Assembly: GCA_020437365.1 (NCBI GenBank)
Contig: JAGQWM010000004.1
Location: forward strand, 3,568-67,567
DNA from: Chitinophagaceae bacterium
Lineage (GTDB): Bacteria; Bacteroidota; Bacteroidia; Chitinophagales; Chitinophagaceae
DNA: 64,000 bases
Reading direction: 5' to 3'
Shown here: positions 36,995 through 38,882 of the stretch, in pieces
How positions within the stretch are numbered: position 1 is the first letter of the stretch
Layout: every line of letters starts with the position of its first letter
The notes under the pieces: generated by a model
Database searches by the model: none
Told to the model about the DNA's origin: nothing
What the model saw: the letters and a program-made list of their open reading frames with translations, nothing else
Translations under genes and position numbers: made by a program

Positions 36995-37225
36995 TTAAGG
37001 CACCGGGTCATAGCCACTGCCGCCCCAGGGATGACAACGGCTGATTCTTTTCACCGCCAACCAGAAACCTTTGAATACGCCGTATTTTTTAAAAGCCTGC
37101 ATGGCATAATGAGAACAAGTGGGTGTGTAACGGCATTTTGGCCCCAGCCAGGGTGAAATAATTAACTGGTAAATTTTTATCAGCAGGATAAAAGGTAGGC
37201 TTAGTATTTTAAGAATGATCTTCAC
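36995..37225 (-). CDS. yidD: Membrane protein insertion efficiency factor YidD
   Basis: [35 protein letters not shown]. Confidence 0.95.
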
Positions 37226-37598
37226 GTAAATTTTTTATCAGTGTGATCAAAATTTTTTTAACTGATTTATAAAAAACCGGGTAGTCAGCAATGTCTTGTT
37301 GAATATACACCAGGAAAAGATGCATTCCCTTTTTTTGTTGCTCTAAAACTTCCTGCAATTCATTTTTTTGTAAACGATAGGCTTCTCGCACCAATCGTTT
37401 TATCTTATTGCGATCAACAGCTTTTTTAAAATTTTTGTTGCTGACACTTACACCAAATTGTAAACCCGGCGTATTTTTTATGGCATAAAAAACCCGAAAC
37501 GGCTGTTGTGTAAATCGCCGGCCGCTTTGAAACAAAGCATCCAAAGCTTTGCGACTTTTCAGTCTTTCTGATTTCCTGAATGTAAATTGTTTGGGCAA
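37209..37598 (-). CDS. rnpA: Ribonuclease P protein component
   Basis: [38 protein letters not shown]. Likely TTG start at 37598. Confidence 0.93.
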
Positions 37599-37610
37599 TG
37601 ATATACAAAT

Positions 37611-37643
37611 AAAAAACTCCGTCTCGCATACAACGCGACGGAG
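37611..37643 (-). terminator. Intrinsic terminator-like hairpin between rpmH and rnpA
   Basis: Minus strand CTCCGTCGCG-TTGTATG-CGAGACGGAG followed by TTTTTT. Confidence 0.7.
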
Positions 37644-37692: not shown

Positions 37693-37848
37693 TTATTTCA
37701 ATTTGCTTTCATCGGAAACCGTCAGCTTTACACGGCCCTTTGCACGGCGACTTGCCAATACTTTGCGTCCATTTGCAGTGGACATTCTTTTTCTGAAGCC
37801 ATGTACTGTTTTACGACGTTTGCGATGAGGTTGATATGTACGTTTCAT
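37693..37848 (-). CDS. rpmH: 50S ribosomal protein L34 (51 aa)
   Basis: Below the ORF-track cutoff. Manual translation: [51 protein letters not shown]. Confidence 0.97.
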
Positions 37849-37995
37849 TTTTTTTTATTTTTCACGATGTAAACTTCTTCGGCTTTGTGCCGGCAAAGTC
37901 TTGAAATTCGGTTGGCCCAATTCGGACTCCTTTCGGAGGAGAACAACCAGTTTTCTGTTTTTCTGCGAGTCACCACACTCACAGATTTGTGAAAG
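37849..37995 (-). ncRNA. Candidate structured 5' leader of rpmH
   Basis: Hairpins CTGTGAGT/ACTCGCAG, CTCC-GAAA-GGAG inside GGTTG/CAACC, and CTTTG/CAAAG, lying between the -7 box and the ATG. Confidence 0.45.
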
Positions 37996-38000
37996 GACGG

Positions 38001-38008
38001 CAAAGGTA
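38001..38008 (-). promoter_or_regulatory. -7 promoter element for rpmH-rnpA-yidD
   Basis: Minus strand TACCTTTG. Confidence 0.7.
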
Positions 38009-38048
38009 GGGTTTTACACGCAAAGATGAAAAGTAATTCACTCGTTTT

Positions 38049-38882
38049 TCAAGGCGTTTTTAAATCGGTATGTGCTGATTGAACCGGCTGTCCATAAAAC
38101 TTTTCGGCATGGCGGTCAAAATTCTCACAATCATCGGTTGTAAAAAATAAACTGCGGCTTTGGCGACTGCAGAGATTGGCCATTTCCGGATGCCTTTCCA
38201 GGTAATTGACAAGGCTTTTGGCTACAATTTCGCCTTGCGAAAGTAGTTTGGCGGCCACCGGAAGGTACTCTTTAATTTTTGGTATCAGCAATGGATAATG
38301 CGTACAACCCAACAAAACAGCATCAATATTTTTGCCTTTTTCGAATAATGATTCGAGGTTTTTGCGGATAAAATAATCGGCACCTTGACTTTCGGCTTCG
38401 CCATTTTCGACCAAAGGGACCCACATCGGGCAGGCTTCCTGGTACACCTTCACCTCTGGGAAAAATTTTTTGATTTCCATGGGATAGGAATCGGAAGCTA
38501 CCGTTCCCGCCGTCGCCAGGATACCGATACTTTGATTTTCTGTCAGGTGGCCAATCATTTCTGCCGTTGGCCGAATGACGCCTAAAACTCTTTTTTGCGG
38601 CGCCATTACCGGCAGGTCTTTTTGCTGAATCGTTCGAAGAGCTTTTGCCGAAGCTGTATTACACGCCAGGATGACCAACGAACAGTTTTGCCGGAATAAC
38701 CAACTGACGGCTTCTTTGGTATATTGATACACCGTATCGAAGGAACGAATGCCATAGGGCGAACGGGCATTATCGCCCAGGTATAGATAATCGTATTGCG
38801 GCAACTGTGCCACCATTTCTTTTAAGACGGTCAATCCACCGTAGCCGGAATCGAAAACACCTATTGGACCTGCTTGTGCCAT
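38049..38882 (-). CDS. murI: Glutamate racemase
   Basis: IGVFDSGYGGLTV, GDNARSPYG, ILACNTAS, LLGCTHYP. Confidence 0.97.
   Translation of the reverse strand: MAQAGPIGVFDSGYGGLTVLKEMVAQLPQYDYLYLGDNARSPYGIRSFDTVYQYTKEAVSWLFRQNCSLVILACNTASAKALRTIQQKDLPVMAPQKRVLGVIRPTAEMIGHLTENQSIGILATAGTVASDSYPMEIKKFFPEVKVYQEACPMWVPLVENGEAESQGADYFIRKNLESLFEKGKNIDAVLLGCTHYPLLIPKIKEYLPVAAKLLSQGEIVAKSLVNYLERHPEMANLCSRQSRSLFFTTDDCENFDRHAEKFYGQPVQSAHTDLKTP

Follow-up and report, generated by a model that had tools for sequence, protein, structure and literature searches.

In this Chitinophagaceae genome, the gene for ribosomal protein L34 (rpmH) is preceded by a 200-nt spacer, which raises the question of whether the spacer carries a regulatory RNA and what that RNA might respond to. 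Within the window (the whole 64,000-nt stretch of DNA that was analyzed), rpmH is a translated ORF of 51 aa at 37693..37848 on the minus strand, and a murI-like gene on the same strand, ending at 38049, is the 5' neighbor of the spacer. The leader RNA, approximately 150 nt long (37849..37998, minus strand), is predicted by its minimum free energy (MFE) fold and by covariance models to form a three-way junction of helices P0, P1, and P2, supplemented by variable hairpins. On the 3' side of rpmH, a terminator-like hairpin trailed by six consecutive U can be read from the sequence at 37611..37643, followed by rnpA, putatively encoding the RNase P protein (approximately 37209..37598 in the ORF listing, with a predicted TTG start), and by a yidD-like gene, all on the minus strand. 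The leader is probably a new feedback switch for ribosomal protein L34. The reading developed below, to which we give an even chance, is that of an undescribed cis-regulatory leader of the rpmH(-rnpA) transcript in which excess L34 stabilizes P0 and lowers translation.

The spacer folds better than its shuffled counterparts (MFE z-score -3.06), and folding sequences one at a time to their MFE gives the same P0/P1/P2 junction for the window and for six other species, three of them cultured (Terrimonas ferruginea, Niabella defluvii, and Flavisolibacter longurius). An earlier note on this DNA had described a structured, minus-strand rpmH leader downstream of the box TACCTTTG (38008-38001), and all of its hairpins are present where it had placed them: an 8-bp hairpin CTGTGAGT-GTGGTG-ACTCGCAG at 37984-37963, a GGTTG/CAACC helix (37948-37944 with 37914-37910) around CTCC-GAAA-GGAG at 37938-37927, and CTTTG-CCGGCA-CAAAG at 37898-37883. 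That the leader is structured is borne out by the z-score and by the recurrence of hairpins in 29/36 genomes of the same genus and 56/150 genera of the family. However, the GNRA and CTTTG/CAAAG hairpins, though present in the window, are lineage-specific variable insertions outside the conserved core. Likewise, the alternative pairing TCACA-AATC-TGTGA exists in the window, but GUG followed by A or G occurs in the P1 5' strand of only 12/98 non-redundant homologues, which alone could form it; the suggested switch between this pairing and the 8-bp hairpin is thus not conserved, and RNAalifold finds no conserved alternative fold. The long-range P0 helix, which joins the 5' end to the region just before the start codon, was absent from that account. 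Its view of the leader as free of ORFs agrees with the homologues, in which no ORF is conserved and leader lengths differ by non-multiples of three; a 52-codon TTG ORF at 38003-37845 was rejected as a small leader ORF on these same grounds.

Evidence for an RNA element comes from compensatory change in P1 and P2, which the earlier note had proposed to seek in rpmH leaders. P1 (37963..37984, minus strand) is the 8-bp hairpin CUGUGAGU-GUGGUG-ACUCGCAG, with its hexaloop at 37976-37971. P2 consists of P2a, in which GAAA (37952..37955) pairs with UUUC (37903..37906) in the MFE fold, and P2b (37910..37948), a GGUUG/CAACC helix whose loop opens with UUCUCC (37943-37938), all on the minus strand. Across 98 non-redundant sequences, changes on both sides were found at all 7 modeled pairs of P1, at 6/7 pairs of P2b, and at 5/5 pairs of P2a, with a covariation score of 0.41 versus at most 0.105 for slid controls and 0/500 shuffles reaching 0.41. 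This alignment was fitted to the covariance model and hence leans toward its structure, a bias from which the structure-blind MAFFT alignment of 29 same-genus sequences is free: there, 89% of cells were paired versus at most 49% with slid partners, and 12 pairs changed on both sides. The RNAalifold consensus contains P1 and P2 only. Covariation thus shows that P1 and P2 are conserved RNA helices.

While the stems of these helices drift, their loops are invariant. P2a has been rewritten by lineage, to CGAUC/GAUCG (L005, L008, and L009), AGGAAA/UUUUCU (L027), or AUUAAA/UUAAU (Niabella), and the closing pair of the P1 hexaloop may be U-A, C-G, A-U, or G-C around a loop constant at RUGGUG. The P2b loop retains UUCUCC in approximately 110/121 non-redundant leaders, 32 of which have one extra C in front. 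Invariant loops on drifting stems are typical of protein-contact or tertiary-contact sites.

Could P2 instead be part of a transcription attenuator, in which P2 and a U-rich tract form an intrinsic terminator governed by an upstream alternative fold? P2 is GC-rich, with the A tract GAAA on one side and the U tract UUUC on the other, and six U follow it in L014 and L015. We nevertheless regard attenuation as having only a very slim chance: the longest U run after P2 is at most 3 in 85/98 sequences, too short for a terminator in most of them, and no anti-terminator pairing is conserved, the alternative hairpin described above occurring in only the same 12/98.

The element is closely tied to rpmH and confined within one family, the Chitinophagaceae, whose members live in soil and water. 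A BLAST search with the spacer gave matches in the 29 same-genus genomes mentioned above, and the leader lies directly 5' of the L34 gene in 29/29 same-genus loci, leaving aside one locus cut off at a contig end. A covariance model built from these 29 sequences (R1) and a broader model (R2) match the window leader with E values of 8e-14 and 2e-11, respectively, and covariance-model matches occur exactly once per genome in the 56 positive genera among the 150 Chitinophagaceae genera sampled. R1 had no match among 140 genomes drawn from 25 other families of the order, nor did R2 among 147 drawn from other families in the class. When 185,579 species genomes were scanned for the exact pattern, at least 119 stretches emerged, nearly all labeled Chitinophagaceae, with labeled carriers including Terrimonas, Niabella, Flavisolibacter, Agriterribacter, Paracnuella, and many MAGs; 79 of the first 80 matches lie directly before rpmH. 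The remaining one of these 80, in Stappia and not at rpmH, was dismissed as a chance match. Two contigs with other labels, L080 (VHAT01000009.1, a Sphingomonadales MAG) and L089 (a Spirosoma MAG), carry a Chitinophagaceae rpmH leader together with rpmH and are probably mis-binned or mislabeled. Among the genomes sampled, the structured leader is restricted to part of the Chitinophagaceae. In other families of the order, rpmH leaders extend only 20-50 nt past a TAnnTTTG box and are A/U-rich and unstructured, in line with the earlier remark that other leaders are short and AT-rich, which marks the long leader as an innovation within the Chitinophagaceae.

Around the conserved core, the leader varies considerably in size. 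Its length ranges from approximately 100 to 170 nt across species, and minimal forms of approximately 105 nt share a common layout, which runs in the 5' part as (G)UCCUUUCAC-AAA-P1 (7-9 bp, hexaloop RUGGUG)-linker-UGAAAC and in the 3' part as P2b (6-7 bp, loop UUCUCC)-NN-AUUUCA-(variable hairpin)-GUGAAAAAG-N10-12-AUG. Junction linkers vary as well. The hairpin CUCC-GAAA-GGAG inserted in the P2 loop of the window (37927..37938, minus strand) is found only in L001, L004, and L014 among the 29 same-genus sequences, and most homologues have a plain P2 loop of 6-7 nt. Between P2 and the P0 3' strand, the window carries the hairpin P3, CUUUG-CCGGCA-CAAAG (37883..37898, minus strand); many homologues have hairpins of unrelated sequence and length at this position, and the shortest leaders have none.

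Two further variants were seen within the family. In several genera, a reduced leader keeps the 5' segment and P1 but has lost P2 (L201, L202, L206, L207, L209, L214, and L065); these leaders combine UCCUUUCAC and a P1 with an AUGGUG loop with another conserved stretch, ending in GUUGAAAnnAAnAUUGUUGGGUnAGUAAAAA, in place of P2. P2 is hence not essential. Furthermore, L34 has an N-terminal extension (MPGKKRTYQP or MAQKRTYQP) in L192, L194, L195, L204, L208, and L063, and in these genera the leader ends in AAAGGAAAAA rather than GUGAAAAAG and the hexaloop is closed by A-U or G-C.

The 5' limit of the leader can be placed by its promoter. A Bacteroidota-type -7 box, TACCTTTG, lies at 38001..38008 on the minus strand, recurs in every homologue at a constant distance, and is directly followed in the window by GCCGTCC. 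The same box precedes rpmH in other families of the order, and TAnnTTTG with GCCnTCC also occurs 5' of rplS, groES, pckA, and other genes of the same genome, each with a short leader. From these parallels, we infer that transcription starts near 37998-37994, a few bases past the box, which would place UUUCAC at the extreme 5' end of the transcript. The promoter signal seems to include GCCnTCC, with which transcription begins. Sequence 5' of the box is unrelated between genomes, indicating that it is rpmH, rather than the gene upstream, that the leader element accompanies.

This 5' end is complementary to the region just before the rpmH start codon, and together they may form P0, the closing helix of the junction. 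The 5' strand, UUUCAC (37989..37994, minus strand), is conserved and pairs in the MFE folds of the window and the six other species with GUGAAA (37860..37865, minus strand), which lies at -19 to -14 from the A of AUG; CCUUUCA is present in 29/29 same-genus leaders. Between the 3' strand and the start codon, an A-rich initiation region lacking a Shine-Dalgarno (SD) sequence can be read at 37849..37859 (minus strand), consistent with a published table in which rpmH of Bacteroidetes has no strong SD (PMC7797042). GUGAA is found in 76/121 non-redundant leaders, 57 of which have it beginning at -19 or -20. The exact motif is missing from the other 45/121; in about a dozen of these, AAAGGA stands at an equal distance and is complementary to UCCUUU, shifted 5' by three bases. 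The two P0 strands hardly vary, with covariation confined to a single pair (C-G 68, U-G 10, and U-A 7), so P0 is supported but not proven, mainly by conserved complementarity. The duplex averages -4.5 kcal/mol, with at least 4 expected pairs forming in 59% of leaders; such weakness would fit a helix that needs a ligand.

Alternatively, the structure could work without a ligand, shielding the short rpmH mRNA from 5'-end-dependent decay or fixing its translation rate. A helix that pairs the extreme 5' end of the transcript, as P0 would, is common among stabilizing 5' structures, and P1 alone suffices in some genera. However, a ligand-independent element would leave the invariant RUGGUG and UUCUCC loops on drifting stems unexplained, and sister families manage with short unstructured rpmH leaders. 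We therefore consider this explanation unlikely.

We favor instead a ribosomal-protein leader that responds to L34. The defining context of ribosomal leaders is their gene association with a ribosomal protein (PMC7247131), and the present element lies in the same-strand 5' UTR of a ribosomal protein gene and has a structure with compensatory changes. Such an assignment fits its association with a single ribosomal protein gene, its one copy per genome, its invariant loops on drifting stems, and the marginal helix by the start codon. Gene context suggests L34 as the candidate ligand, and the leader would act on translation. Points against this reading are that L34 is a tiny, very basic protein and that we know of no L34 autoregulation in any organism. 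The protein is among the smallest and earliest-assembling of the 50S subunit. When made in excess of free 23S rRNA, it might bind the conserved loops or the junction and thereby stabilize the otherwise marginal P0. P0, formed by UUUCAC or UCCUUU with GUGAAA or AAAGGA, would then close positions -19 to -11, beside the A-rich, SD-less start, locking the initiation region against 30S loading and lowering rpmH translation. Expression of rnpA, as a read-through gene, could be lowered as well, through coupling or mRNA decay.

This proposed logic resembles that of well-studied operators. In the E. coli rpmI-rplT (L20) and rpsO (S15) systems, pseudoknots act as operators that trap or block the 30S subunit via long-range pairing near the start, and the rpmH leader would similarly have a ribosomal protein stabilize a weak long-range helix by the start, lowering translation. 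Unlike these operators, it has no SD to hide, forms a three-way junction rather than a pseudoknot, joins the extreme 5' end to an A-rich segment at -19 to -11, and is known from sequence comparison. Within the Bacteroidetes, SD-based autoregulation has been described for bS21 and bS18 (Jha et al. 2021, PMC7797042), which, like the mechanism proposed here, entails ribosomal-protein feedback at initiation in a phylum that otherwise ignores the SD. The two differ in that bS21/bS18 regulation uses a strong SD that pairs with a normally sequestered anti-SD (PMC7797042), whereas in the rpmH leader a folded element is conserved instead.

The gene order raises a second candidate ligand. Across 171/181 loci, rnpA lies 3' of rpmH on the same strand, usually 60-120 nt away, which makes RnpA as well placed as L34 to be the ligand. 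In the E. coli rpmH-rnpA operon, a partial terminator separates the two genes, and the window has the same order with a terminator-like hairpin between them. For the E. coli operon, neither a conserved, structured 5' leader nor feedback by L34 is known to us, and literature searches turned up none. The apparent TTG start of rnpA in the window is only approximately 13 nt past the U run of the hairpin, suggesting that the gene is expressed through read-through, as in E. coli, and rnpA is probably co-transcribed with rpmH in this way. The hairpin itself (37611-37643) contains a G-A mismatch.

RnpA might accordingly bind the leader, or the RNase P holoenzyme might cut it, so that operon feedback would follow RNase P or tRNA status. 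The 171 loci and an intervening terminator that looks leaky speak for such a connection, as does the complementarity of the invariant loop core UGGU(G) to the tRNA 3' end (C)ACCA, a kind of pairing by which this end is recognized in T-box leaders and by the L15 loop of RNase P RNA. Nevertheless, the motif is always beside rpmH, even in two loci where rnpA lies approximately 1.4 kb off; it has no Rfam resemblance, to either T-box or RNase P, and contains no acceptor-stem-like or specifier-like element; and in the window most transcripts probably stop at the terminator-like hairpin before reaching rnpA. Overall, we judge a role for RnpA or RNase P distinctly improbable. Smaller still is the chance we assign to the leader reading tRNA or RNase P status instead of L34, whether through UGGU(G) pairing with 3'-(C)ACCA or as an RNase P substrate or decoy; if true, this would couple the output of the rpmH-rnpA operon to the tRNA-processing load.

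A further explanation is that the leader is a riboswitch or a sensor of some other trans factor (a small molecule, a metal or polyamine, an alarmone, an sRNA, or another protein) that tunes L34 to growth state. The conserved junction of several helices, with its invariant unpaired nucleotides and its place in a 5' UTR, would suit a riboswitch, and loss of L34 is reportedly linked to Mg2+ homeostasis in B. subtilis. Yet a riboswitch class usually governs several genes of metabolism or transport, while this element accompanies a single gene class, rpmH, once per genome; its conservation falls on bases of the terminal loops rather than of a junction pocket, and the linkers of the junction vary. 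We think it improbable that the leader senses a factor of this kind.

Ribosomal-protein leaders often, though not necessarily, mimic the rRNA site of their protein, and several 23S matches were examined. Together, the P2 loop and its closing pair (CGUUCUCCC) exactly match positions 834-842 in the 23S rRNA of a family member (G163), a segment that, in E. coli numbering, we take to lie immediately 3' of H32 and to run into H36. bL34 is described as the H26-binding protein, which contacts domain II through H32 (PMC12274283, PMC11100757), and among the rRNA matches only CGUUCUCCC falls in a region that these papers link to bL34, making it a lead and not evidence: exact 23S matches of 9-10 nt arise in 17-77% of shuffled leaders, so the CGUUCUCCC match is not statistically significant, and in rRNA the segment is a junction or helix strand rather than a hairpin loop, a context that differs from P2. 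Other matches connect GGUGUGGU to the tip of H34 and AUGGUGG to the 23S 5' end. As signs of rRNA mimicry by sequence, none of the three (GGUGUGGU, AUGGUGG, and CGUUCUCCC) is significant versus shuffles.

Several other pairings and roles for the loops were considered and set aside. Pairing of the hexaloop with rpmH codons 6-8 (CAA CCA CAU, offering ACCAC) would use a Pro codon that is CCA in only 10/121 leaders and CCT in 61, CCG in 30, and CCC in 19. In a pseudoknot of the 5' UCAC with the P1 loop, leaders with an AUGGUG loop keep UCAC and would form a C-A mismatch in the only sterically plausible register. By inspection, loop-loop pairing between GUGGUG and UUCUCC has no register with more than 2 contiguous pairs, and TGTGGTGA was discounted as a DnaA box, having no ATAA half and lying among stems that covary as RNA.

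The rpmH leader appears to be without precedent, in keeping with the earlier note, which knew of no described L34 leader family. At gathering thresholds, no Rfam 15 family matched anywhere in the window (the L10, L13, L19, L20, L21, L25, L31, S4, and S15 leaders and the T-box included), and at E values up to 10 only two spurious matches arose, one of them a snoRNA on the other strand. A match to L10_leader was discarded, as it scored 14.5 bits versus a gathering threshold of 44 and covered only the terminator part, on the hairpin downstream of rpmH. Full-text searches of the accessible ribosomal-leader literature retrieved no rpmH or L34 leader, and neither L34 nor rpmH is mentioned in a 50-genome ncRNA survey or in the survey of 20 new ribosomal leaders by Eckert and Weinberg 2020 (PMC7247131). 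The candidate leaders of the latter, such as the Bacteroidetes L13 leader, are presumed to bind the encoded protein for feedback, some without clear rRNA mimicry, and like them the rpmH leader is a lineage-restricted, covarying structure in the 5' UTR of a ribosomal protein gene. It differs in the protein concerned, in its unrelated fold, in its confinement to one family, and in matching no Rfam 15 family at E ≤ 10.

The leader is a new RNA family, a candidate for a well-known regulatory class and the first one for L34, for which no regulatory RNA has been described before. Its worth lies in extending that class by a well-supported member, not in a new principle. Few ribosomal-protein leaders are known in the Bacteroidota, a phylum that starts translation without SD pairing. 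If the L34 operator were confirmed, it would bring a new pair of RNA and recognizing protein, would show how a folded leader shuts an SD-less, A-rich start site, and would offer a way into how the cell balances production of L34 and, possibly, the RNase P protein. Cultured strains (Terrimonas ferruginea DSM 30193, Niabella, and Flavisolibacter) carry the motif, which is therefore directly testable.

The promoter of the leader has counterparts elsewhere in the genome. An extended consensus, CCnTTAnCTTTGCCnTCC, recurs before highly expressed genes (rplS, groES, and pckA), with sites at 38001-38010 in the window and on contigs C66, C71, C76, C77, C115, C126, and C149 of the same genome (G000). 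On the minus strand of C76, near 22227, the promoter box stands before AAAACGGAGGUGAGAACCAAUCCCGUUUUUU, a small hairpin and U run located approximately 95 nt 5' of an ORF beginning MAQVKEFSVEEKL, which could be an attenuator or a small RNA.
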